The position numbers were made by a program, and so were the translations under genes. Below are positions 2,204 through 16,620 of a DNA stretch of 17,054 nucleotides, one piece after another. This stretch comes from an uncultured bacterium. Lineage in GTDB: Bacteria > Lernaellota > Lernaellaia > Lernaellales > Lernaellaceae. The notes below the pieces were generated by a model, which did not search any database, was not told the origin of the DNA, and saw nothing but the letters and a program-made list of their open reading frames with translations. The stretch lies in assembly GCA_964534375.1 (NCBI GenBank), contig CAZHPN010000137.1:1-17054 (forward strand), given 5' to 3'. Numbering within the stretch: the first letter of the stretch is position 1; every line of letters starts with the position of its first letter.

Positions 2204-2799
2204 ATCTTGACGTGGGTTGCTCGCGGCTGCTGGCGATCGGCGCGCACGCCGACGATGTGGAATATGGCATCGGCGGCTGGTTGCAACGCTTTTCGTCGGC
2301 GCGGGTCGTCGTTGTCACCGATGGTCGGCCGGCGCGCGTGCGCGAGACTGAGGCCGCGGCGCGGATCTTAAACTACCAGCCCGCGATTCTCGACTACGCC
2401 GAGAACGACGTGAACCTTTCGCGGCTGGTCGTCGCCCTCGATGCGATCCTCGCCGGCGAGCGGCCCGACCTGATTGCGGTTCATTGGCCGAACGACACGC
2501 ACCAGGACCATCGGGCGGCGGCGGCGGCGACCCTGGCCGCGGCGCGCAACTTCGACGGCGCGATTGTGTTCTACCGCAGCCCGTCGTCGGCCGATTTTGC
2601 CCCCAATTTCCTCGTGGCGCTGACCGACGACGAATGGCGCGACAAGCTCGCGGCAATCCGCGCGCACGCTTCGCAGATGAGCAAACCGTTTTTGAGCGAC
2701 AAGGCGCTGCGCGCCGTCGCCCTGTCCTGGCCGGTCCTGTGGCATCAAGACGCAAAACTGTGCGAACCGTTCGCCCTTCACCGTTTGATCGTGGGGTAA
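2197..2799 (+). CDS. PIG-L/LmbE-family N-acetylglucosaminyl deacetylase
   Basis: Metal-binding motifs 'AIGAHADDVE' (H-x-D-D) and 'DTHQDH' (H-x-D-H), plus 'R..E..AA..L' and 'K..AI.AHASQ'. GTG start overlaps the upstream stop. Confidence 0.9.
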   Translation: MVNLDVGCSRLLAIGAHADDVEYGIGGWLQRFSSARVVVVTDGRPARVRETEAAARILNYQPAILDYAENDVNLSRLVVALDAILAGERPDLIAVHWPNDTHQDHRAAAAATLAAARNFDGAIVFYRSPSSADFAPNFLVALTDDEWRDKLAAIRAHASQMSKPFLSDKALRAVALSWPVLWHQDAKLCEPFALHRLIVG

Positions 2800-2802
2800 A
2801 AA

Positions 2803-3051
2803 ATGGCGGCAATCGTCGAACAGGACGGTCGCGGGTTGCGCGACGACCGCAGCGTTTCAGTAACGGAGTGCGCGCTGACCAGGGCGGCGTGCGTGGCGAC
2901 AATTCAGGGCAAGCTCGCGGTCGGCGAGGAAAAATTCGCCGAAGTAATGCGGCAACTCGCGTTCAACACCAAACTGCTTTATTTCTTCGGGGCCGGAATG
3001 CTCGGCCTGATCTCTCTTGTCATCGGCCTCTACGCCAAATTGCCGAAATGA
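2803..3051 (+). CDS. Small membrane protein with one C-terminal TM helix (holin/XhlA-like topology, unconfirmed)
   Basis: 82 aa with hydrophobic 'LLYFFGAGMLGLISLVIGLYA' followed by a basic tail. Fills the operon gap exactly (3 nt and 6 nt spacing). Confidence 0.6.
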   Translation: MAAIVEQDGRGLRDDRSVSVTECALTRAACVATIQGKLAVGEEKFAEVMRQLAFNTKLLYFFGAGMLGLISLVIGLYAKLPK

Positions 3052-3057
3052 CCGGCC

Positions 3058-3768
3058 ATGAAAGACAAAAACGCCAGTATCAACTATGCCATTTTCAAAA
3101 ACACCGAGGCCGAAATTCAGGCTCTTGCCCGCGCGAATCCGGTTACGCTCGTGGCATTTTCGGGCGGCAAAGACAGCTTGGTTCTGCTCGACCTCTGCTC
3201 GAAGGCGTTTCAAAAAGTCGTGTGTTTTTTCATGTATCTCGTGCCAAACCTCGCCGTCGCCGAAAAGCAGCTTGACTATGCACGCGACCGCTACGGCGTC
3301 GAAATTCTGCAATATCCGCATTGGGCGACCATCAAAAGCCTGAAAAATGGGGTCTATTGCAACGTTCATCCCTCGTGGGATGCAGTCAAAGAACAGACCG
3401 TCAACGACGTGCATGAATGGGTCAAGGCCGACACGGGCATCCCGATCATCGCGCACGGCGCCAAGAAAAGCGACAGCCTTTGGCGGCGGCGCTACATGGC
3501 CGCGCGGAAAAACAAGAAAGACGGCGCTTACTACCCCCTGGCCGACTGGAACAAATACGAAGTGCTGGCGTACCTGGGGCTGAACAACATCCCGCTGCCG
3601 GAAACGTCGAGCGGCGGCAAAAAGGCGGCGTCGGGCCTGGGCCTGATGACCGAATGCCTTTTGTGGCTGCACGACGAACACCCCGAAGATTTTGCAAAGG
3701 TGCTGACTTGGTATCCCTACGCCGAGGCGGTGGTGTACCGGAGAGATTGGTATGGAATCAAATACTGA
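3058..3768 (+). CDS. PAPS-reductase-like PP-loop (adenine nucleotide alpha-hydrolase) protein, mobile-element type
   Basis: PP-loop 'VAFSGGKDS', 'HGAKKSDSLWRR' and 'YPLADWNKYEVLAY'. Lacks the CysH C-terminal ECGLH and the CC...CxxC cluster motif. Confidence 0.85.
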   Translation: MKDKNASINYAIFKNTEAEIQALARANPVTLVAFSGGKDSLVLLDLCSKAFQKVVCFFMYLVPNLAVAEKQLDYARDRYGVEILQYPHWATIKSLKNGVYCNVHPSWDAVKEQTVNDVHEWVKADTGIPIIAHGAKKSDSLWRRRYMAARKNKKDGAYYPLADWNKYEVLAYLGLNNIPLPETSSGGKKAASGLGLMTECLLWLHDEHPEDFAKVLTWYPYAEAVVYRRDWYGIKY

Positions 3769-4646
3769 ATTGGGCGCGGCCGACGAGCAGACCGGCGAAC
3801 AAGGCGGCGAGAAGTCGGGGCGTAAGGGGGCGCAGGGAAAGGCCGGGATGCGTCGCGGCGCCGCAAGCGGCCGAACGAAGGCGCGGCCACGGCGCGGCAA
3901 GGGGCCGAAGGTTACACCGGGCGGGCTAAACCCGTTCGAGAAGTTTGAAGTCGTCGAAATTCACCGAAGTTTGATTAAGAACGCGCCCTATAACCCGCGT
4001 CAGATCACCGACGACGCCCGCGAGCGGTTGGGAAACAATATCGAAAAAGTGGGCCTGTTGACGCCGCTCGTTTGGAATGCGGAAACGGGCAACCTCGTTT
4101 TGGGGTCATCAGCGCCTTGAACGCCTCGACGCCAAGACCGGCACGCAGGATTACACCCTGCACGTCGCGCGGGTCCATCTCGATCCCGCGACCGAAAAAG
4201 CGCAGAACATTTTTTTCAACAATGCCAACGCGCAGGGCTATTTCGACATGGCCGCGCTCGAAACGATGTTCAAAGAGGAAAAAATCGACTTCGAGGCCGC
4301 GGGCTTCGACCTGGGGGAAGTCTATAAAGAGTTCGGCGAATCGCCGCTCGTGGAACAACCCGAACAGATGCTTGAGTTGTCGAAGCGAATCCGCGAGGCC
4401 GACGACCGCCAGAAACTAATCCGCGAAACCGTGAAAACGCGCGACGATGCCGATTTTTACCTCGTCGTCGTTTTCCCCGGCCACGATGAGCGCGAAAAGT
4501 TCACCGACGCGCTCGACCTCGACGACAACCGCTATATCGACGGCAAGAGTCTGCTCGCCAAATTGCTTGCGGCCCAGGCCGCGGCCGGCGCGATCTCGAC
4601 CACGACGGCGACCGCGACCGCGGCGGCGGCGGAAATGACAGTTTAG
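3752..4646 (+). pseudogene. ParB/Srx N-terminal-domain protein split by a single-base frameshift (sequencing error or true lesion)
   Basis: The first frame gives 'IKNAPYNPRQI...L..NIEKVGLLTPLVWNAETGNLV' and the +1 frame continues 'GHQRL...'. Deleting one base from TTTTGGGG (4098-4105) restores the ParB motif GNLVxGHQRL and a single ~297-aa ORF. Confidence 0.85.
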
Positions 4647-4706
4647 CAAGGCAGCGCCCCGGCCTTCGACGGGGGCGGCAAACGTTTGCGAAAGGATGAT
4701 GGAAAC

Positions 4707-4856
4707 ATGGCGAAACGCGGAACCGGCAAGCTCAAGGTCAGCGCCGCCGAAGCGAAATTCTTGGGCGGCGGCAAAGGCAAAAAGGGCGGCAAGGGCAAGA
4801 AACTCAGCGGCGCGATCAGCCCCGGCGCTCGCAACAGCCTCGGCGGCTGGTACTAA
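4707..4856 (+). CDS. Unannotated 49-aa Lys/Gly-rich basic peptide (MAKRGTGKLKVSAAEAKFLGGGKGKKGGKGKKLSGAISPGARNSLGGWY)
   Basis: Read manually because it is below the ORF-track cutoff. AAGGA RBS at 4692-4696, codons ending mostly in G/C like the rest of the operon, and stop codon immediately followed by hairpins and the terminator. Confidence 0.75.
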   Translation: MAKRGTGKLKVSAAEAKFLGGGKGKKGGKGKKLSGAISPGARNSLGGWY

Positions 4857-4891: not shown

Positions 4892-4931
4892 AAAAGCCCC
4901 GGCGCGGCCGTAAGGCTGCGCCGGGGCTTTT
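4892..4931 (+). terminator. Intrinsic terminator, probably bidirectional, preceded by a second 8-bp hairpin at 4863-4882
   Basis: AAAAGCCCCGGCGCGGCC-GTAA-GGCTGCGCCGGGGCTTTT forms a long stem with a GNRA loop and A/T tracts on both sides. The upstream hairpin is CGGCCGTC-TCAC-GACGGCCG. Confidence 0.9.
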
Positions 4932-5034: not shown

Positions 5035-7233
5035 ATGGACACCACGGCAACAACATTAAAACAGCGAACCCGTTTGCTGATCCTCATTCTTTATGTGGTC
5101 GGCTTGCTCATCACATCACGCCTCGCATTAGGTGCTTGGCTGCCACCAAGGTCGGAAAAAGGCGTTTGGTTCTATTCCGCATTGGCAGCTCTACTTCTCG
5201 GCAATCTCCTTGTAACGCCGTACTTCCGAAAGCCCACTAACTCGATTTCATACTCCGTTGCGGCTGCAATCGCGCTTCTAGCAGTGAATCCATGGGGCCG
5301 AACCAACTATATTGGATTTGACTGCTTTCTCTGGTCTTCGGCTATGGGGTATACGGGCGTCGTCTTTCTCGCCGGCATTTTCACGATAGCGCTAAAGGAT
5401 TCTCAACGTGTAATATGGCAAAAATTTGACAAGTCGTGTTTTCTCGTGAGTGACACACTTGGCAATCCACGGGCAATTTTTTCCGTGATTTTCCTCTTTG
5501 CCCTTGTCACATTCCACCGGAGTTCACCGCGCGAATATATTATCATCGGGTTTGCCTGGGCCGTGTTCGTTGGGCTACGCCCTCTCGAATCCATCGCTGG
5601 CCTTTTCCGCAGATTCAGCGCGGTATGGTCAACCGAGGAGGCCACGGCTCGCCTTGGCACCGTCGTTGGCCATGAAACTCCTGGGCTGGTCCTTATTCGG
5701 GAAGAGACTTCCTCAGCGGTGTCTTTTGGCGATCTCCTTTATGTCCGAAACGAGAGCGGCAAGCCGGGAATCGCTGTTGCCCTAGATCACGTCGGCTTTA
5801 CTGATGGTCGCTGGCTACGAGCGCAGCATCTATGCTCCGAAACCGAATCAGATCAATCTGCGCGAGGCCCATCTCTGGTTCGGGACGTTGCCGAAGGCAG
5901 CGTTTTTTTTGCCGACAAACGAAAGGTCTCCGCAGACACAAACTCGGCTGTGGACGATATTTGTAAGCGCCTCCTTGGGCTGGTTGCTCCGGATACGGCA
6001 GTCGGGACGCTACAAGTCGAGGTTGTCAGGGCCGATTTAGATTTGCAGTTGGGGAGCCTTATCCAAGTCAACATTGGCTCACGCACCGTTTTATACCAAA
6101 CCATCGAAGGGATCACCAAGGAGGAAATTCTCCATCAAAAGAACACACGAGGTTTCGTTCGAGCGGTGGCAAAAAAGATTGGATGCTGGAACAGCGCCAA
6201 CACAACATTCGAGAGTGTTCCGTGGCTGCCGCAGCCTAATGCGCCAGTTTTTCTGGCACCTCAGCAAACACCAACACCGAAAAGGGAAGCCATCGGCCAC
6301 TTTCCACAAACGGATTACACAGTAAGAATCGACCCGCAATTTCTGGTTACGCACAACGCCGCAATTCTTGGCATCCTTGGTGTAGGAAAGACATTCCTTG
6401 CGCTAGAACTGGTTGAGCGTATGGTTGATGCAGGGATAAAGGTGATCTGCTTGGACCTGACCGATCAATACTCGCAGCAGCTTGCTGCCTTCTATAAAAG
6501 CGATGCGGAAAGCGCGTTTATGACCGAATTGAATGGCATCGGACTGTCAGGTAAGACCAATTGTAACAAAAACGTTGAAGAAGGCGGCAGCGTGCGGCCG
6601 TTCGAGGCGAAGCTCAAAGAACATCTTACCGCGTTTCTTGGACCGGCGGGCACCGACAAACTATTAATATTCAACCCCGCTCGGTTTGAGGTGTGGCGAC
6701 AGGATAGCAAGCCGTTCCAAAACGTGGCGTCGATGGCGACACTGACGCCTACGGAAATAACACGTGTCATAACCGAAGTTGCGCTTGGCGTACTGCAAGC
6801 TCAGGGAATGACAGATCGAGCGAGGTGTTGCCTCGTCTATGAGGAGGCACATTCTCTGATCCCGGAATGGAATGCTGTCGCCGCCGAGGGTGACAAGGCC
6901 GCGACCAACGGTACTGCCAAAGCTATTCTACAAGGTCGGAAATTCGGACTTGGATGTTTGGTCATTACTCAGCGCACCGCAAATGTGACAAAAAGCATTC
7001 TTAACCAGTGCAACACAATATTTGCACTCCGCGTTTTCGACGCTACAGGGATGGAGTTTCTTAAGAATTACATAGGGAACGATTACGCCGGCGTCTTGTC
7101 GTCCCTAATGGATCGGCACGCAGTTATCTTTGGACGTGCATCATCTTGCAAAGACCCGGTACTGCTCCGCCTGAATGACCGTGACGAATTCTTGAAGATA
7201 TTTCGCAAACAGATCAGCGTCGAATCCGTGTAA
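5035..7233 (+). CDS. HerA/FtsK-superfamily (DUF87) ATPase with N-terminal multi-pass membrane region and probable HAS barrel
   Basis: About 6 hydrophobic segments in aa 10-185. Walker A 'HNAAILGILGVGKT', Walker B 'LVYEEAHSLIP', and the HerA motif 'ILQGRKFGLGCLVITQRTANVTKSILNQCNT'. 'P.PNAPVF' closes the HAS-like region. Visibly lower GC than the flanks. Confidence 0.9.
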   Translation: MDTTATTLKQRTRLLILILYVVGLLITSRLALGAWLPPRSEKGVWFYSALAALLLGNLLVTPYFRKPTNSISYSVAAAIALLAVNPWGRTNYIGFDCFLWSSAMGYTGVVFLAGIFTIALKDSQRVIWQKFDKSCFLVSDTLGNPRAIFSVIFLFALVTFHRSSPREYIIIGFAWAVFVGLRPLESIAGLFRRFSAVWSTEEATARLGTVVGHETPGLVLIREETSSAVSFGDLLYVRNESGKPGIAVALDHVGFTDGRWLRAQHLCSETESDQSARGPSLVRDVAEGSVFFADKRKVSADTNSAVDDICKRLLGLVAPDTAVGTLQVEVVRADLDLQLGSLIQVNIGSRTVLYQTIEGITKEEILHQKNTRGFVRAVAKKIGCWNSANTTFESVPWLPQPNAPVFLAPQQTPTPKREAIGHFPQTDYTVRIDPQFLVTHNAAILGILGVGKTFLALELVERMVDAGIKVICLDLTDQYSQQLAAFYKSDAESAFMTELNGIGLSGKTNCNKNVEEGGSVRPFEAKLKEHLTAFLGPAGTDKLLIFNPARFEVWRQDSKPFQNVASMATLTPTEITRVITEVALGVLQAQGMTDRARCCLVYEEAHSLIPEWNAVAAEGDKAATNGTAKAILQGRKFGLGCLVITQRTANVTKSILNQCNTIFALRVFDATGMEFLKNYIGNDYAGVLSSLMDRHAVIFGRASSCKDPVLLRLNDRDEFLKIFRKQISVESV

Positions 7234-7503: not shown

Positions 7504-8271
7504 GTGCAAAGATATGTGGCCAACGAGTTAATTCATTTTGTCGGCCGAGGAAAGCCTTCCGAGGTCGAACGGTACGAATTGCTGAAACATATATTAAATA
7601 CGGGCCAGCTAATATATCCGACATATGATCCAAACAATGAAAAGGTAACGATGAGGCTAAATCCTAATAAGCCTTACAAGGACCGGCTGGACGTGGATGG
7701 CATAAGCTTTTGTGACATTCCGATTAATGATCTCAACATTCACATGCAAAAATACGGGAGATTTGGCATTTCTTTTCGCAAAAGGTTTTTGCTTGAAAAA
7801 GGCGCAAATCCGGTATTCTACTATGCCGTTGATAAACTGGAATGCGGAGCGGGGCTGCGTTTCGGTAAATCTGGCATCTTTTTTACTGATATTATGGCGA
7901 TTGGACTGGAAATATTCAAGCATTATCGAGATGACACGACAACGTTTGACGCGCCAGAACACGATCTGCAAGGCACTAAAATTGGGAAGCACACTGGAAT
8001 GACATTTGAACAATGGTACGGTAATTTGATTTCGGAATTATTTGCTTTCATAAAACCTTTTATGGGCGATCTTGATGAAGGCGACGAGGAACAGTTTTAT
8101 ATGGAACGTGAGTGGAAAATCACCTATAGGGTTGTATTTTCTATGGCGGATGTATATAGAGTTATTTTACCGCAGGAATACGCCGAGAAATTCAACACTG
8201 ATTTCAGGGAAAAATATCTAGGCCAAATAACTTTCGCCGATGATTTGGGCGGCGGAAAAAGTCAACGGTGA
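7504..8271 (+). CDS. AbiGi-family protein (putative abortive infection, ADP-ribosyltransferase-like motifs)
   Basis: 'LIHFVG', 'IL.TG.L', 'ISFCDIP...L..HMQKYGRFGISF.K..L...GANPVFY' and 'FYMEREWK' match the AbiGi family pattern as I recall it. Markedly AT-rich relative to the flanks. Confidence 0.8.
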   Translation: MQRYVANELIHFVGRGKPSEVERYELLKHILNTGQLIYPTYDPNNEKVTMRLNPNKPYKDRLDVDGISFCDIPINDLNIHMQKYGRFGISFRKRFLLEKGANPVFYYAVDKLECGAGLRFGKSGIFFTDIMAIGLEIFKHYRDDTTTFDAPEHDLQGTKIGKHTGMTFEQWYGNLISELFAFIKPFMGDLDEGDEEQFYMEREWKITYRVVFSMADVYRVILPQEYAEKFNTDFREKYLGQITFADDLGGGKSQR

Positions 8272-8746: not shown

Positions 8747-9232
8747 TTAGAACAAGTTTCCCTGACGCGGCCGGCGCGCGGGCTTCTCGACCTTCACTTT
8801 TTCCCCTCCCCCGACCCGCAAATGCTCGACAGTGACCGGGATTGTTATTTTCGTTCCCCATAGCTCGAACTCGACAGGCTCGCAGCCGGCCGCAATCCAT
8901 TCCGCGTAAAACTTCCGATGACAGGCGGCGGGGTCGCTCTCGGCGCACATCAAGACGATGTTGCCGCCGTCGAGAACATGCGCGCGGATTTCTTCGAGCG
9001 CGTCGATTACCTCGCCCTGGTCGGTCCACCCGAACCCGCCAAGCTGCGGGAAATGGGCGTAGCGCTCGCCGAGCAGATTTTCGAGATTGCGTTTGTTGCA
9101 ACTCGGATTATGCCTCGATCCCGGCCGCGAGCGAACGTCAACAAGCTCCCGGTCGCCAATCGCGGCGATCAGCTCGGCGGCGGGCGTCAGGCCGTGGCCG
9201 ATCGTGTAGATGGTAAAAGGCTTTCCATTCAT
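8747..9232 (-). CDS. DUF488 family protein (161 aa, start revised to ATG at 9232)
   Basis: 'IYTIGH', 'LVDVRSRPGSR', 'Y.H.PQLGG' and 'LMCAESDPAACHR' are DUF488 motifs. RBS GAAAGGA lies upstream of 9232. Confidence 0.85.
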   Translation of the reverse strand: MNGKPFTIYTIGHGLTPAAELIAAIGDRELVDVRSRPGSRHNPSCNKRNLENLLGERYAHFPQLGGFGWTDQGEVIDALEEIRAHVLDGGNIVLMCAESDPAACHRKFYAEWIAAGCEPVEFELWGTKITIPVTVEHLRVGGGEKVKVEKPARRPRQGNLF

Positions 9233-9258
9233 TTGTCCGTTCCTTTCTCGTATAGCTT

Positions 9259-9327
9259 GCCTCATCAGTGCGTCGGGAACCACCCAGGCGCAGACGGCGA
9301 CACGCTTGCGCGTGCCGTCGTTTCGGC
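9259..9327 (-). ncRNA. Hammerhead ribozyme, type II permutation
   Basis: Minus strand reads GCC-GAAA-CGACGGCACGC-GCAA-GCGUGUCGCCG-UC^UGCG-CCUGGGUGGUUCCCGA-CGCA-CUGAUGA-GGC. This gives the full core (CUGAUGA, GAAA, GUC triplet), stem II GCC/GGC, stem III with a GNRA loop and stem I UGCG/CGCA. Predicted cut between 9293 and 9292. Confidence 0.9.
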
Positions 9328-9357
9328 GGGAAAGGACGGGGGAACGTGGCGGGAGAG

Positions 9358-10377
9358 CTACATCTTGAGCGCGAAGATTTGCCGCTGATTTTCGGGTTTT
9401 TTCTCGCTGGCTTTGACGATCTTGAGCGCGGCGATCTCGCGGCCCATCGCCGCTAAGTCGCGTTCGTCTTGCTCGACACACTCGACCAATTCGGCATTTT
9501 TCGCGCGCAGATCACTGAGGCACGCCGCGACCAATTCAAAGCCCTTCGTCATTTCGGCCTGCAACCCGGCGACCATTGTTTCGACGGCCTTGCCATACTC
9601 GATGAGCTTTTGTTTGCAATGTTCGTCAACAGCGTCGAGCAGATCGTCGGCGGGAGTGCGCGCGGGGGCCGTCAAAAATTCCTTCACGGCCGCGGCGCTC
9701 ATGTCGTCCTCGATGGTCGCCGGCGCGGGCGCGGCCTTCGGCTTGAATTCATAAACGGTCGCGCCGGCCTCATTGTCGTCGTCGGTGGTCGGTTCGGTCG
9801 TCGTCATGGCGATCGGCGCCGCCTCGACAATCGCCGCCCGGTTGAGCGGCAAATTGCGCGGGTCGCTGATCGGCCAGGGCGTGCCGTCCGCGTCGAAACT
9901 GATTTTTTCCAGTTCACGAATCGCGGTCATCGCCAGATTCGACCATGTGCAACCGTCGTCGGATTTTGGGACCGTGATTTCGTGGGCCTCTTTCTTTCGG
10001 TCCCACAAGATCCCGTATTTCGCGGCGACGAACTCTTGAGCGGTCAACTCGTTTTCCGCGGTGAAAGACCGATGCACGTTGATAAAATCCGCGCCCATGA
10101 ACCGCTGTCCATCATACGGATAGGCTTCATAGTCCATCGAGTCGGTCATTCCGTCGAATGTCGTGCGGGTGAACGCATTCGTAACCTGTTCGACCAGCGC
10201 GCTCGCCGGCCCATCGGTGTAGCCGATGCTCACCGAGCAGCCGCCGCTATACTTGCTGGTCGTGACCGAAAATTTGCAGTCGGGGAAAAAATGCTTCAAC
10301 GCGAGCCGGATTTTTTTCGCGGTTTGCGTAGCATCCTCGAACGCCCATTCTTGCCGTCCTTTGTCCTGTTCGTTCAT
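9358..10377 (-). CDS. LPD29 (large polyvalent protein-associated domain 29) protein with C-terminal coiled coil (339 aa, start revised to 10377)
   Basis: 'TAKKIRLALKHFFPDCKFSV....YSGGCSVSIGYTDGP....V......F....FDGMTD' matches LPD29 as I recall it. RBS GAAAAGAGGC precedes ATG 10377. Confidence 0.8.
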   Translation of the reverse strand: MNEQDKGRQEWAFEDATQTAKKIRLALKHFFPDCKFSVTTSKYSGGCSVSIGYTDGPASALVEQVTNAFTRTTFDGMTDSMDYEAYPYDGQRFMGADFINVHRSFTAENELTAQEFVAAKYGILWDRKKEAHEITVPKSDDGCTWSNLAMTAIRELEKISFDADGTPWPISDPRNLPLNRAAIVEAAPIAMTTTEPTTDDDNEAGATVYEFKPKAAPAPATIEDDMSAAAVKEFLTAPARTPADDLLDAVDEHCKQKLIEYGKAVETMVAGLQAEMTKGFELVAACLSDLRAKNAELVECVEQDERDLAAMGREIAALKIVKASEKKPENQRQIFALKM

Positions 10378-10409
10378 CTCGTGCCTCTTTTCTTCGGGCA
10401 GTAATCGCC

Positions 10410-10447
10410 CGACCCAGGCCCGCGCCGCGGGACGTGAGCTAGGGTCG
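10410..10447 (-). repeat. Intergenic hairpin motif, copy C (diverged, covarying)
   Basis: CGACCC-UAG-CUCACGU-CCCGCG-GCGCGGG-CCU-GGGUCG, followed by the CGGGC/GCCCG hairpin and the RBS. Confidence 0.7.
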
Positions 10448-10451
10448 TCGA

Positions 10452-10871
10452 TCACACGACGAACCGTTTTTTTTCGACCATGCGAAGGGTGATTTTCTGT
10501 TGCGGCTTGCCGGCCGGCGTTTCAACGTGGCTGTCGATGACCCACGCAAGATTGTCCCAATAAACGCCGCCGATTTCTTCGACCAGCTTCGCGGGGTGCA
10601 GGTGGTATGGCCGCCGCGCCGGCTTGACCAGTTGGACGGTATAGGTGTCGTCGGCCGCCAAAAAAACGGTGACGTAGCCCTTGAACAACCGGCCGGTCAC
10701 TTTGAAACGCAGACCGCCACGCATCAGCACGCCGTCGCGCTTTTCCTCGGGCATTGCCGCGAATTCGTGCGCGCCCCAGGAACCCAGGGTCGCATTGCCG
10801 CCGACCGCGAGAATTTGCTGCTTAATCGTGTTGGCGATCTCGACCGCTCGTTGCGCCTGTTCGTTATCCAT
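10452..10871 (-). CDS. Hypothetical phage-type protein (139 aa, start revised to 10871)
   Basis: RBS AAAAAGAGGCGAAA-ATG. 'IANTIKQQI...WGA...GLRFKV....KGYVTVFL..DDTYTV...GVYWDNL...ID' resembles a widespread uncharacterised phage family. Confidence 0.75.
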   Translation of the reverse strand: MDNEQAQRAVEIANTIKQQILAVGGNATLGSWGAHEFAAMPEEKRDGVLMRGGLRFKVTGRLFKGYVTVFLAADDTYTVQLVKPARRPYHLHPAKLVEEIGGVYWDNLAWVIDSHVETPAGKPQQKITLRMVEKKRFVV

Positions 10872-13329: not shown

Positions 13330-16300
13330 TCACCATGACGCGGCCTTTTCAATTATTTCAATTTCACCGGTCGTCAGGCCATAAATTCTATATACGTGCT
13401 TGTCAATAGTCGCTTGCAGTTTCCACGACTCCTGCGCCCTTTCCGCACTAGCGGCACATTCGATTACACGTCTCACTAGACCAGCAATCTCCTCCTCATC
13501 ATTTTTAGAACAAACCGGCACGGAGAATGATTCAAGGTACTTCGTCTGGAAGTAGTAATAGCTGTTGTTATACGGGTTGCTAGTGTTTTTGATGAAGTAC
13601 CAGAGAACCTTGCTGTTTAGCACTCCGAGCAAAAACTCCTCCCCGATACGAGATGCACAGCCAACGAGGGAGTAACCCCCGGCATCCGGGTACCAACCCT
13701 GGTCGTCTAAGGTGAAGTGCGGCATATTCTGTAACTGAGGCGTAATAAGTTTCCTGCCATCAAACAGTCGTTTGTCCCGCGATCTATGCAGCGAAAACCA
13801 GCATTTGGGATTTGTCTTGTACTTGACCTTTTTTTCAATCAAATGCTTCTTAAAGGGCTTGAAGTAAGCGTAGGCCAATGGGAAGGCGGCCTTCATCTCT
13901 GCCTCTGTGTACGGCACCGTTTTTCCACGTTTGTCCAGGTGATGCGGATAGATGATGACTATGTCGCTCGTCAGCTTGCCGTAGCGTCTAATGTGCTCCC
14001 CTTTTACAAGCGGCTTCACAAGGCTTGCCTCGACCTCGACCTCGGCATTTGCAGCGGCCGAATAACCTACGTAGGTCTTACCTTTCCGTTCACCGCGCAA
14101 GACGAAGATATCGTCCCCGACGGTGACGATCCCTTGATAGATTCCCTTAACGATATCTGTTAAGGGCCGCGCCTGAGATTTTAGCTTCACGACGAGATCG
14201 GTGGACCCGGCGGTCTCGGTAGCCAATATCCAATGCCGACCGTCCTCCTCATACTTACGCTCGGCGAATTTTACCGCCCCAAAATCCTTCGTCGTTACGT
14301 ACTTGAATTGAAAGCAGCTGTTGTTGCGGCTGTAAAAGAATATTCCAGTGTAGGTAGTGGCCGTCTCAAAGACCTGCTCGACGCCGAATAGAACGGCTTT
14401 TTTTAATCCGCCACTCTTGTCCAAGAAGACTTTTAGGCCTCGTCCATAACCTGCTGTGAGAAACCGATGTGGATGAATCAGGCAGACGGTTCCGTTCTTA
14501 TTCATCTGGGCAAACGCAGCCTCAACGAACAACACATAAATATCGAACTTCCCTGACGCCGCCACGTACCTGGGTTTCAGGTATTGCACATACTTTGGTT
14601 CGATATTTTGAATTCTAATGTACGGCGGGTTTCCCATAAGAACGTCAAAACCATCCTTTTCACGAAAGACCTCCGAAAAGAAAAGCCGGTAATCGAAATC
14701 GACACGATGTCCGAGGGACTTCTCCGAGTGGGCTAGGATATTCTCGATGCGTCGATCAATCAGCTGTTTAAGCTTTGCCTTTCGTTCGTGGTCAGAATCG
14801 TCGAAATATTTCTCTTTGAGCGTCTCGATATCCGCTAACCCCTGTGACTGGAACGGAAAGCCCAAGAGCGAGTCGCCCGTGACGATTTTAAAATCGAGGT
14901 TCGGCAACGGTTTGATCTGCTGCACGTCTTCCTCGTCCACGACGAGCGAGAGCCAAAGCCGTAACTTGGCGATTTCGACGGCGCCAGCATCAATATCCAC
15001 ACCGTAAAGCGAGTTCTGAATCGCATGACGCTTAAAGTGGTAAGGTGTTCGTTCTGACAAACCGCTGAAATACGGATTCAACGCGGTGCGCGCACGGACA
15101 ATCTCGGTCATCATGCCGACCGGGAAGGCGCCGGAACCAATGGCGGGATCACATACCGTGATGTTCTTGAGCGCGTCGTCGAGATCGCCGGCGTATTTTT
15201 CAACGGCTGCGGGGAGTCGGCGAATGTAGCTCGCCGTGCCGTCCTTACGGGCGGTTTCATAGTGCGCAGCCTGCTCGCCTTCGAGGATGAGGGCTTCGAC
15301 TTCAACCCGCTGAATGATTCGGCCGTTCTTGTTGAGTGTGGTGTCAAGGTAGTTGATGAGGCTCTCCTGACACATATAGTGGACGATCTCGCGCGGCGTG
15401 TAGAAGGCGCCAAGTCCCTTGCGCCGGTTTTCTTCGATCAGCTTCTCGAAAACCTTGCCGAGCATTTCGGGGTCGATGGCCACGTCTTTTTCGAGAGGTT
15501 CGGCCTCGTTGACCGTGAAATTATAGCGGTCGAATACATCGAGGATGCCGGCGCCGACATCGCCGGCTGGTGACGGGTACTTGTTCGTAAAGAGCGTATT
15601 GGGCAGGTTGATCGCCGTTTTCTTCCAATCGTATCCGGCGAGCGGTTCAAACAGGCCGCCGTTGAGGAATGGTATGCGGCATTGGAAGGTCTGGCACCAA
15701 GCATCGTGGCCGCGATCCGTGGCGAGGGTGTCATAGAAAAGCGGTTCGAGGGTATCGCTGAAAAAGCACTTTTTTTCGCGCGTGGCGCGGTCGGCTAATA
15801 GACGAAGGAAATTGCGCGGGCCTTCCCCCCATTTGCCGCCCTTGGCGACGCCGAGCCAGCCCTTTTTCTGGATGAAGTAGAGGAAGACGATCTGACCGAG
15901 AAGCTTCTTGGTAAAGTCCACGGTGCTGACGCCCTTGGCCTTGAAATCGGCCCGGAGGACGGCGTTCTTCTTTACCAAAGCCTCCAAGGCGTCAAGCGCG
16001 GTTGCGAAGAGACGAGCGTATTCATTAAAAAACTCCTTCGTTACCGATTCAACGCTGAAAGCCTCCTCGATTTGGGCGAGCACCGGAACGTCGGATGTAT
16101 TTTGAAGGAGCGCGAGAAAGCGAGATTGCGCCGTATGACATTTCTCGTCGGCGCCGACCAGGTAAGAGTATCGTCGCGCCGGGGTCAATCGCTCCTCGGG
16201 CTTGATCTTGCCGGTTTTCGGATCTCGCTTCGTTTCGTATTCCATGCGGACGTATGAAAAACGCCAGGATTGCGAATCGGGCGCCACAAAGGCGACGAGG

Positions 16301-16620
16301 CCCGCCTCCTTGTAACTATCATCGCGCTTGAGCTTGTGGGCGACGAAATCGCGCAGGGCCGTACGGGTGCGTTCCAGTTTGTAGGATTCGGTGAGATTGA
16401 CGATGAGCACGTCGGCCTTCTCGTTCTCAGGCGTCGTAAAAGTGCCGATCCGTTGGCAGGATTTTACATGCGGGGCGAATGCGTCCGGCACTTGCATCGT
16501 CTGCGCTTTGGATTCGTCGAACCCGTTGCAAAGTTCGTTAATGAAATCGCGGTAGCGTTTTCGATCAAACGACGTTTGGAAGGTGTCGCAGACGATGCGT
16601 TGGGCCGTGGATTTGTCCAT
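13330..16620 (-). CDS. Eco57I-like type IIG restriction-modification protein / N6-adenine DNA methyltransferase with TaqI-like target recognition domain
   Basis: Motif I 'CDPAIGSGAF', 'YGVDID..AVEIAKLRLWL', motif IV 'FDVLMGNPPY', 'IPFLNGGLF', and a C-terminal TRD 'LLGVLNSKVLWYF...ID..VY.IYGLT..EI'. Confidence 0.92.
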   Translation of the reverse strand: MDKSTAQRIVCDTFQTSFDRKRYRDFINELCNGFDESKAQTMQVPDAFAPHVKSCQRIGTFTTPENEKADVLIVNLTESYKLERTRTALRDFVAHKLKRDDSYKEAGLVAFVAPDSQSWRFSYVRMEYETKRDPKTGKIKPEERLTPARRYSYLVGADEKCHTAQSRFLALLQNTSDVPVLAQIEEAFSVESVTKEFFNEYARLFATALDALEALVKKNAVLRADFKAKGVSTVDFTKKLLGQIVFLYFIQKKGWLGVAKGGKWGEGPRNFLRLLADRATREKKCFFSDTLEPLFYDTLATDRGHDAWCQTFQCRIPFLNGGLFEPLAGYDWKKTAINLPNTLFTNKYPSPAGDVGAGILDVFDRYNFTVNEAEPLEKDVAIDPEMLGKVFEKLIEENRRKGLGAFYTPREIVHYMCQESLINYLDTTLNKNGRIIQRVEVEALILEGEQAAHYETARKDGTASYIRRLPAAVEKYAGDLDDALKNITVCDPAIGSGAFPVGMMTEIVRARTALNPYFSGLSERTPYHFKRHAIQNSLYGVDIDAGAVEIAKLRLWLSLVVDEEDVQQIKPLPNLDFKIVTGDSLLGFPFQSQGLADIETLKEKYFDDSDHERKAKLKQLIDRRIENILAHSEKSLGHRVDFDYRLFFSEVFREKDGFDVLMGNPPYIRIQNIEPKYVQYLKPRYVAASGKFDIYVLFVEAAFAQMNKNGTVCLIHPHRFLTAGYGRGLKVFLDKSGGLKKAVLFGVEQVFETATTYTGIFFYSRNNSCFQFKYVTTKDFGAVKFAERKYEEDGRHWILATETAGSTDLVVKLKSQARPLTDIVKGIYQGIVTVGDDIFVLRGERKGKTYVGYSAAANAEVEVEASLVKPLVKGEHIRRYGKLTSDIVIIYPHHLDKRGKTVPYTEAEMKAAFPLAYAYFKPFKKHLIEKKVKYKTNPKCWFSLHRSRDKRLFDGRKLITPQLQNMPHFTLDDQGWYPDAGGYSLVGCASRIGEEFLLGVLNSKVLWYFIKNTSNPYNNSYYYFQTKYLESFSVPVCSKNDEEEIAGLVRRVIECAASAERAQESWKLQATIDKHVYRIYGLTTGEIEIIEKAASW

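Follow-up and report, generated by a model that had tools for sequence, protein, structure and literature searches.

Phage genes for PAPS-reductase-like proteins are among the most-reported 'auxiliary metabolic genes', and are commonly read as sulfur metabolism. Among the described systems closest to the locus considered here are IbrA/IbrB of Escherichia coli and YbdN/YbdM, in which a PAPS-reductase-like gene and a ParB-like gene of prophage origin lie side by side. IbrA and YbdN are of a longer type, with an extra C-terminal DUF3440 domain, and we know of no Gly-tailed small protein described for either pair. Here, we analyse a related pair on contig CAZHPN010000137.1 of an uncultured bacterium of the Lernaellaceae (Lernaellota), where the two genes are followed by a small open reading frame (ORF) of 49 codons that is rich in Lys and Gly. 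The window is the whole 17,054-base contig (C137), one of 381 contigs in a genome bin that is 94% complete. The names ybdNM appear in the accessible part of PMC9068703, and the accessible parts of PMC10853773 and PMC12839542 describe how, in DndC-DndB, SspD and BrxP, a PAPS-reductase-family PP-loop enzyme works on DNA together with a ParB-superfamily protein.

The whole locus lies on the forward strand. The first gene (3058-3768) is intact and encodes a PAPS-reductase-family PP-loop enzyme of 236 amino acids with the motif SGGKDS. It is followed by a ParB/Srx-like gene that a frameshift splits into a 5' part (3752-4120, 122 amino acids), which carries a basic low-complexity N-terminus and the first half of a ParB-N fold before a premature stop, and a 3' part (4077-4646, 189 amino acids), which is homologous to its relatives from the motif GHQR at ~4106 and includes a helical C-terminal region. 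Next comes the 49-codon ORF (4707-4856; MAKR…LGGWY), and an intrinsic terminator with an 18-pair stem, 13 GC pairs and a T-rich tail (4892-4931) closes the module. We tentatively read this locus as one copy of a three-part phage and mobile-element module, made up of a PP-loop enzyme, a ParB/Srx protein and a small Gly-tailed protein, that uses the Gly tail in a DNA-directed modification; we put the probability of this reading at roughly 40%. The pairing of the PAPS-like and ParB-like genes is already known. The third component, with its Met-Ala start and Gly-Gly end, appears to be new; neither it nor the three-part module was found described in a literature search that left aside subscription papers and supplements. 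The 'NAP + PAPS reductase' clusters of the PANGU preprint (10.64898/2026.04.06.716658) were considered as a possible instance of this module and rejected, since the accessible part of that preprint describes YejK-like proteins of normal size and not these peptides.

How widespread is the pair? Its recurrence in one order and orientation identifies it as a conserved phage and mobile-element pair. A PAPS-like gene followed on the same strand by a ParB-like gene was found in all 17 loci whose PAPS-like match reached at least 32% identity; L081 (28%) and L082 (26%) gave no ParB match with the query used. A second set of 31 metagenome loci showed this arrangement in 29 cases, and the remaining two stop short of ParB. 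In a PHROG scan of the neighbours, a terminase large-subunit gene lay downstream within ~3 kb in 10 of 15 loci, usually with a small-subunit gene before it and a portal gene after it. Riemerella phage RAP44 is annotated with exactly such a series (PAPS reductase family, ParB-like nuclease, TerS, TerL), and Lactobacillus phage LR1 has the same order plus one inserted gene. The original prediction, made from the window's sequence alone, had likened the pair to those of prophages, and the terminase-side position and the annotated phages bear this out. The closest metagenomic relatives are found more often among integrase, NikA-like, HicB, ASCH and DUF488 genes, with a terminase in one of 17 such loci (L153), many of these contigs being short. 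The pair is common in viral contigs and metagenomes. It was not found in any of 40 related genomes, which contained no close homolog, only two partial matches (E 1e-4 and 8e-4); there was no second copy of either gene in the bacterium's own genome, and a plasmid collection gave no enzyme match at E <= 1e-10. A DUF488 gene lies near the module in 3 of the 17 metagenome loci (L132, 4306-4887; L139, 4511-4882; L143, 1878-2423) as well as in the window, and may be a further associated component.

A tblastn search with the 49-codon ORF found nothing in the fetched loci. Small ORFs were also sought by composition, as ORFs of 20-90 codons on either strand with Lys and Gly fractions of at least 0.18 each, in 1.1 Mb and a further 0.13 Mb of fetched loci. 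In the 1.1 Mb, the matches were the window's ORF, one ORF each in loci L069, L077 and L071, and a single unrelated ORF of 21 codons in L024. The L069 and L077 ORFs each end just 5' of the PAPS-like gene, and the L071 ORF lies downstream of the ParB gene with a Shine-Dalgarno motif and a terminator of its own. The 32 metagenome loci yielded many more Lys/Gly-rich ORFs, again directly 5' of the PAPS-like gene, so that in ~1.2 Mb of fetched DNA such small ORFs are nearly confined to the PAPS-like/ParB-like pair. Among the metagenome loci, L130 has tandem PAPS_reduct genes (1478-2170 and ~2764-3453), with the Gly-tailed peptide MAKKGGKKGGKKGGKKGGGRGIDR encoded directly 5' of the second.

The ATG-initiated ORFs that end near the start of the PAPS-like gene are basic and 19-90 codons long, most of them with MA(K/T/Q) at the start and Gly-Gly or poly-Gly at the C-terminus. 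Examples are MAKAKLKPKV…RPTGGGGGGG (L069), MAKGKAGKGGKGGKGGKGGKGGGGGGGG (L131), …ARRRKSLGGKGG (L007), …ARRKSMGGSGG (L080) and …NTNDSGGW (L152). The class was defined by an ATG start, a length of 19-95 amino acids, a combined Lys and Arg fraction of at least 0.18, a GG among the final 8 residues, and a stop codon between -150 and +40 nucleotides from the estimated start of the PAPS-like gene. By these criteria, which were chosen after the first examples, so that the large contrast with the controls describes a pattern and is not a blind test, a member stands beside the PAPS-like start in 26 of the 35 non-redundant loci with enough upstream DNA; for the starts of the remaining long ORFs in this DNA, the figure is 8 of 1116. 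Three of these eight control positives are themselves in-family: the peptides encoded 3' of ParB in L071 and L079 and, in L073, another Gly-tailed protein whose gene lies between those of the pair. This leaves five of ~1,113 unrelated gene starts. Counting the window, L071 and L079, in which the peptide gene is downstream of ParB, at least one such ORF is present in 29 of the 35 loci. A similar small ORF beside homologous pairs had been the check that the original prediction proposed for itself, and these counts support the view that the basic peptide belongs with the PP-loop/ParB pair.

Several properties set the class apart from small ORFs in general. An exact GG end occurs in 18 of 29 module peptides, compared with 49 of 8235 (0.6%) small ATG-ORFs, and an MA start in 24 of 28, compared with 536 of the same 8,235 (6.5%), a background that includes the module family's own peptides. 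The other 11 peptides end in GGWY, GGW, GGGGA, GGEG, GGGGR, GGGGRTG, GGGRGIDR, GGPSA, GGDH, GGGDI or GGKSCC. A Shine-Dalgarno-like motif of at least 4 nucleotides precedes 27 of 28 module peptides and 484 of 1629 random ATGs; in a reading of the same output, 15 of the 28 have a match of at least 6 nucleotides, for example AAGGAGG. Peptides of a Firmicutes-type clade can be aligned with one another (MATxKQxIA…RRKSxGGxGG), and the profile of this clade, run against 1.84 billion representative sequences, retrieved eight proteins of 49-72 amino acids that match it from end to end, seven of which end in GG. The Gly-tailed ORFs are, to judge from such conservation, proteins and not just a matter of composition.

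Some modules carry two or three Gly-tailed proteins, the longer of which (72-167 amino acids) have similar tails. In Lactobacillus phage JNU_P7 there are three, with lengths of 123, 140 and ~92 amino acids; two end …GSTGS(K/R)GG and the third …FGSKGG. L079 has two, with a tail of the GSTGNRGG type; the tail of a longer protein in L073 is GSGSSGG, and LR1 has a single Gly-tailed protein that ends …GSSGKSSG. Pfam and PHROGs gave no credible family for the 19 and 26 module peptides submitted to them, and ESM Atlas look-alikes of the 167-residue protein of L079 were only unnamed viral clusters, below 0.9.

The window's own ORF carries several marks of the class: a MAK start, the correct strand, GG near the end, and a terminator, as in L071. 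A Shine-Dalgarno-like AAGGA lies at 4692-4696, 10 nucleotides 5' of the ORF, and the GGWY end is resembled by the …DSGGW of L152. By these sequence marks, the ORF is a member of the basic Gly-Gly-tailed class. In most relatives, the peptide gene is 5' of the PP-loop gene and not, as in the window, 3' of ParB. The peptide was described from the start as 'hidden' and as the product of the last gene before the terminator, and the sequence bears this out: the ORF and its Shine-Dalgarno-like motif are present ahead of the 18-pair stem, and 'hidden' is a fair term for a product that no gene caller has placed in the protein collection.

The PP-loop enzyme matches Pfam PF01507 (PAPS_reduct) with 44.9 bits (E 1.7e-11; cut-off 22.5); apart from a weak ATP_bind_3 match, Pfam finds nothing else in its 236 residues. 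The search detected 185 homologs, mostly of ~222 amino acids and 40-68% identical, and, in what is weak evidence as a search, no longer fused forms. Across 28 family members, the SGGxDS PP-loop is invariant and the motifs GAKxSDSxWRRR and WLHDxHPxDF also recur. The only conserved cysteines are C47 (26 of 28) and C101 (24 of 28); there is no conserved Cys in the C-terminal third of the 28-member alignment, C199 being unique to the window's protein. The catalytic Cys of CysH lies in a C-terminal ECGLH-type motif. No such tail is present in the alignment, nor is a set of three or four cluster-binding cysteines of the kind found in APS reductase or DndC-type Fe-S proteins, and the NCBIfam CysH equivalog NF002537 scores only 19 bits against a cut-off of 154. 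The enzyme had been predicted to lack both the CysH tail and the Fe-S cysteines, and this holds.

The predicted structure of the enzyme is a high-confidence, Rossmann-like PP-loop fold. With this model, TtuA tops the Foldseek list, the TtuA-TtuB complex 5gha included, as a generic similarity of fold. Sequence matches to Cap9 (9nto_B, E 2.3e-4) and to BrxP (35 bits, residues 30-187) are weak. A complex prediction of the enzyme with ATP and the 49-residue peptide, run without controls, scored 0.02, under the mark of 0.32, and speaks neither for nor against binding. In the bin, PF01507 is matched by the module's gene alone. Such a match is present in each of 14 control genomes; a CysH/CysD of the organism's own may be missing, or may lie in unassembled DNA.

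The original prediction had also named a ParB-N protein with its own Arg/Lys/Gly-rich N-terminus. That N-terminus is present and the assignment is correct, except that the gene is not a single ORF. Both of its parts match phrog_9353 (annotated 'unknown function'), the first at profile positions 6-62 (E 5.5e-18) and the second at 62-236 (E 5.3e-23), while Pfam ParB_N stays under its cut-off of 26.3, with 16.3 bits for 3752-4120 and 16-20 bits overall. The frame changes by +1 in a T4G4 run, TTTTGGGG (4099-4106), where one four-letter step at 4103 restores a product of 297 amino acids that can be aligned over its entire length with 15 intact homologs; the skipped base may be any of 4103-4106. The break immediately precedes the G-H-Q-R of the ParB/Srx nucleotide-binding loop, which is invariant in 16 sequences and belongs to the GGHQR motif of the module's ParB/Srx-fold protein. 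ParB/Srx proteins bind nucleotides and DNA. In the model of the L069 homolog, the N-terminal domain is confident (predicted local distance difference test 86-94 at residues 11-100). Structures of cytidine-diphosphate-bound ParB, Noc and KorB match it at E 3.5e-6 to 1e-4, with a weaker match to sulfiredoxin; the C-terminal half is helical and poorly predicted. Motif and model point to a ParB/Srx-type fold with a GxxR-type nucleotide-binding loop.

The break in the ParB gene is real DNA and not an error of the bin, because it recurs elsewhere. An independent contig of 8,970 bases (L126) has the same frameshift and differs from the window by two substitutions (3851, 3876) over 6,471 bases, and Logan contigs from three runs of three studies, one of which may be the source sample, cover the break without an indel (X1, 3000-4417; X2, 3841-4308; X3, 4010-4163). 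Contigs from all three runs also disagree with the window at 3851 and 3876, as L126 does, and each of these differences is an amino-acid change within the low-complexity N-terminal region of the ParB-like protein. Programmed frameshifting was considered and judged the less likely reading, because the ParB gene is in one frame in 46 of 46 other loci (all 17 of the first scans, with offsets that are multiples of three, and 29 metagenome loci), and because T4G4 is, to our knowledge, not a known slippery motif. We read the break as an inactivating mutation, presumably a recent one because both halves are otherwise open. In the cultured phage JNU_P7 (L158), too, the ParB-like gene is annotated as two coding sequences (3947-4258 and 4316-4645), and in the near-identical L079 it is one ORF of 232 codons; laboratory growth may thus not require the ParB-like gene.

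What might the Gly tail do? Known PP-loop enzymes (GMP and NAD synthetases, TilS, tRNA thiolases, QueC, CysD, DndC) use ATP to adenylate a substrate oxygen, with release of pyrophosphate. Starting from the observed association of the three genes, we infer from genes and sequences a mechanism in which the module's enzyme, like all characterised PP-loop enzymes, would spend ATP to adenylate its substrate, and the flexible tail of the small protein, which is probably disordered, would enter the PP-loop active site. The reaction could take either of two forms. In the first, the C-terminal carboxylate would be adenylated and then passed to an amine or made into a thiocarboxylate. In the second, a position on DNA would be adenylated, and the tethered peptide would attack it as carrier or nucleophile. 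The peptide's polycationic body would, together with the ParB-like protein, hold the reaction at the DNA. As a result, the DNA of the element, or else a protein bound to DNA, would be covalently changed, to the element's advantage against host defences. There are precedents for PP-loop enzymes that act on a partner's Gly tail, in the TtuA-TtuB pair and in QueC-family Cap9 and QatC, which use N-terminal Gly tails (accessible parts of PMC13279940, PMC13639016 and 10.1101/2025.04.06.647259), and a phage PAPS reductase is said to counter Dnd defence (as cited in the accessible parts of PMC13551039 and PMC10945359). By analogy, an anti-defence role would fit the cited anti-Dnd finding and the window's defence-island setting.

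A more specific version is unlikely in our estimate. It holds that the Gly-Gly-tailed peptides are new phage-encoded conjugatable tags or carriers, whose C-terminal glycine would be adenylated by the PAPS-reductase-family PP-loop enzyme, in place of an E1- or PafA-type ligase, and that they would then, with the help of the ParB/Srx protein, be joined to DNA or to a target protein, or would deliver sulfur to DNA as a thiocarboxylate.

A number of observations weigh against a three-part module that works through its Gly tail, beyond the late choice of criteria mentioned above. Six of the 35 loci have no qualifying peptide (L005, whose ORF ends …RSSG, and L070, L129, L137, L142 and L149), and the position of the peptide gene varies, being 5' of the PAPS-like gene, between the two genes or 3' of ParB. 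In 11 of the 29 peptides, the window's GGWY included, one to six residues follow the GG, and a free Gly carboxylate would therefore need trimming; no peptidase was found among 104 neighbouring ORFs with Pfam or 84 with PHROGs. The same scanned ORFs include no E1-like enzyme (ThiF/MoeB), cysteine desulfurase or rhodanese, which would leave a thiocarboxylate route dependent on enzymes of the host. In the window itself, a protein search with the 49-residue peptide listed 13 candidates, none at E <= 10, and thus no homolog, and the ParB gene is broken. Considering that break and the atypical GGWY end, the window's copy is probably decaying or only partly functional. Finally, DNA binding alone could be the role of the module peptides, which are polycations of low complexity.

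This last point leads to the alternative that survives best, which we consider possible but on the whole unlikely: the small basic proteins would be protamine- or histone-like polycations, produced alongside the late genes, that neutralise charge and aid ParB-like loading, condensation or packaging of phage DNA, with a Gly end that is chemically idle and a PP-loop enzyme that acts elsewhere. The extreme Lys/Arg content of the peptides suits such a role, as do their strong Shine-Dalgarno sites, which suggest high expression, their position directly before terminase genes in phages, and the basic low-complexity N-terminus of the ParB-like partner. It is difficult to see, however, why simple polycations with otherwise unalignable sequences should have GG at or next to the C-terminus (18 of 29, against 0.6% for small ORFs), or why the same tail should occur on longer, non-polycationic proteins of the same modules. 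The peptide also stays with pairs that lack packaging genes, as in the window, L132, L139 and L145.

Could the window's 49-codon ORF be a chance ORF or remnant in a G+C-rich spacer, and the locus a decaying IbrA/IbrB-like prophage pair with no third part? The frameshifted ParB gene, the lack of any sequence homolog of the peptide, the other ORFs that overlap it on both strands, and a contig without terminase or other phage structural genes would all be expected under this explanation. We nevertheless judge it quite improbable, given the near-exclusive association of such Lys/Gly-rich ORFs with the pair across the fetched DNA, and the combination, in this very ORF, of MAK start, Shine-Dalgarno motif, right strand, GG near the end and terminator, with L152 ending …GGW.

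Still less probable is a purely regulatory role, in which the small ORFs would yield no functional proteins and would act on translation or transcription of the PP-loop gene as leader peptides or upstream ORFs, through stalling at Lys and Gly codons or through translational coupling. Their Lys and Gly codon runs, and their ends between -150 and +40 nucleotides from the PAPS-like start in 26 of 35 loci, sometimes overlapping it, are what a leader would show. A leader would not be expected 3' of ParB, where the ORF lies in the window, L071 and L079, with its own terminator in the window and L071, nor would it be conserved at the protein level over 50-65 amino acids, as in one clade, or accompanied by two or three Gly-tailed proteins of up to 167 amino acids.

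The usual reading in phage papers (accessible parts of PMC12323421, PMC6145125 and PMC10945359), that the enzyme is an ordinary sulfate-assimilation CysH and hence an 'auxiliary metabolic gene', follows the Pfam PAPS_reduct domain and the names given by the sources; it is very improbable for an enzyme that has no ECGLH-type C-terminal Cys, falls far below the equivalog cut-off and is obligately paired with a ParB-like gene. The speculation that an amine released by the upstream PIG-L deacetylase is joined to the peptide by the PP-loop enzyme, so that a sugar-peptide conjugate results, draws on a same-strand PIG-L gene (2197-2799) that ends 4 nucleotides before an 82-codon ORF. It can practically be dismissed: in the 125 + 32 fetched loci, the sole PIG-L homologs are those of L001 and L126, which are copies of the window itself, and G+C drops from ~0.67 to ~0.55 at ~2800. 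The glycosyltransferase, acetyltransferase and PIG-L genes look like host cell-envelope genes beside an inserted element.

Those envelope-type genes, all on the forward strand, are a group-1 glycosyltransferase (331-1413), a hexapeptide acyltransferase (1400-2203) and the PIG-L deacetylase. G+C content is ~0.64-0.68 across them, changes to ~0.55-0.61 from ~2800, a junction also present in the independent contig L126, and falls further, to 0.41-0.52, around 7600-8200; these steps suggest a mosaic of inserted DNA beside host envelope genes. Between the junction and the PP-loop gene is the 82-codon ORF (2803-3051, forward), which encodes a hydrophobic C-terminal segment. It has no Pfam, PHROG, PADLOC or NCBIfam match and, among the fetched loci, was located by tblastn in copies of the window alone. 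Relatives carry a Gly-tailed peptide in this position immediately 5' of the PP-loop gene; that the ORF is a member of the module is doubtful. No Rfam family reached the gathering threshold anywhere in the window.

Downstream of the terminator, on the forward strand, are genes for a protein of 732 amino acids with a HerA/DUF87 ATPase domain at residues ~420-705 (5035-7233) and for an AbiGi-like protein (7504-8271). The two look like a defence pair, in which a partner nuclease or effector is not obvious. From its sequence, the N-terminal part of the HerA/DUF87 protein appears hydrophobic and membrane-like. On the reverse strand follow a DUF488 gene (8747-9481), a gene for an LPD29-domain protein (9358-10455) and one for a type IIG restriction-methylase of 1096 amino acids, Eco57I/MmeI-like (13330-16620; PADLOC E 3e-229). 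LPD29 is a domain of phage and plasmid 'polyvalent proteins' with a proposed anti-defence role (accessible parts of PMC5512222 and PMC13551039). Together, these downstream genes appear to be a defence or mobile-element island; Pfam and PHROG scans of the contig found no terminase or other phage structural genes.

The analysis replaces a vague annotation with a defined three-component system that is open to reconstitution and testing, and draws attention to a conserved small gene that is systematically overlooked in gene calling. The pair is present in cultured phages of Lactobacillus and Riemerella, those of Lactobacillus having Gly-tailed proteins as well. Should the Gly tail prove to be an activation handle, the module would be categorically new: peptides would be activated by a new route, and phage-host conflict might include a new modification of DNA or protein. 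If the peptides were tags or carriers, phage 'cysH/PAPS reductase' genes would gain a role in tagging DNA or protein, and not in sulfur metabolism.

How does the module compare with known systems? It resembles IbrA/IbrB in its adjacent PAPS-reductase-like and ParB-like genes, with the same-strand ParB-like neighbour seen in the window and 46 loci, and differs from IbrA and YbdN in the size of its enzyme, 236 amino acids with PAPS_reduct as the only Pfam domain and no DUF3440-type extra domain. The juxtaposition of a PAPS-family PP-loop enzyme and a ParB-type protein also recalls the Dnd, Ssp and type-4 BREX (bacteriophage exclusion) systems. None of the companions of those systems (DndA, DndD/E, SspB/C, PglZ, cysteine desulfurase) was found in the window or among the scanned neighbours of related loci, and the module enzyme differs from DndC and BrxP in having no extra Cys-rich and Fe-S elements and in being borne by phages instead of serving host defence.

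In the tRNA thiolation systems TtuA-TtuB and Ncs6/NcsA-Urm1, the C-terminal Gly-Gly of a small carrier inserts into the active site of a PP-loop enzyme, much as proposed here. TtuB and Urm1 are folded beta-grasp carriers with E1-like activation, in contrast to the low-complexity basic partners of the module, with which no E1 was seen, and TtuA and NcsA hold an Fe-S cluster through three cysteines, where the module enzyme has only two conserved ones. Ubiquitin-like and sulfur-carrier proteins (ThiS, MoaD, TtuB, Urm1) have a C-terminal Gly-Gly; of the module peptides, 18 of 29 end exactly in GG and 11 have one to six residues after it (GGWY in the window). As low-complexity Lys/Arg/Gly sequences of 22-65 amino acids with no Pfam match, they show no beta-grasp fold. 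A second small protein of comparable form is Pup, a disordered protein whose GG-containing C-terminal tail is the handle for conjugation by PafA, a glutamine-synthetase-like ligase. The likeness lies in the small size, the disorder, which is probable for the module peptides, and the GG-containing C-terminal tail; the differences are that PafA is not a PP-loop enzyme, that Pup is acidic and the module peptides polycationic, and that no PafA or Dop homolog was seen here.

The PP-loop enzymes of phage-bacterium conflict offer a further parallel. In the available accounts, QueC-family Cap9, of type IV CBASS (cyclic oligonucleotide-based antiphage signalling system), and QatC, with QatB, act on a partner's flexible glycine tail. 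They belong to the QueC family (PF06508) and not to PAPS_reduct, their partners' tails are N-terminal and those of the module C-terminal, and the module peptides, with Met-Ala at their N-termini, lack the N-terminal Gly motif of QueC-type partners; moreover, Cap9 and QatC serve host defence, whereas the module is mostly phage-encoded. In that last respect, the module resembles the anti-Dnd phage PAPS reductase, which, as far as the available accounts describe it, is likewise phage-encoded and has an anti-defence phenotype rather than one in sulfur metabolism.

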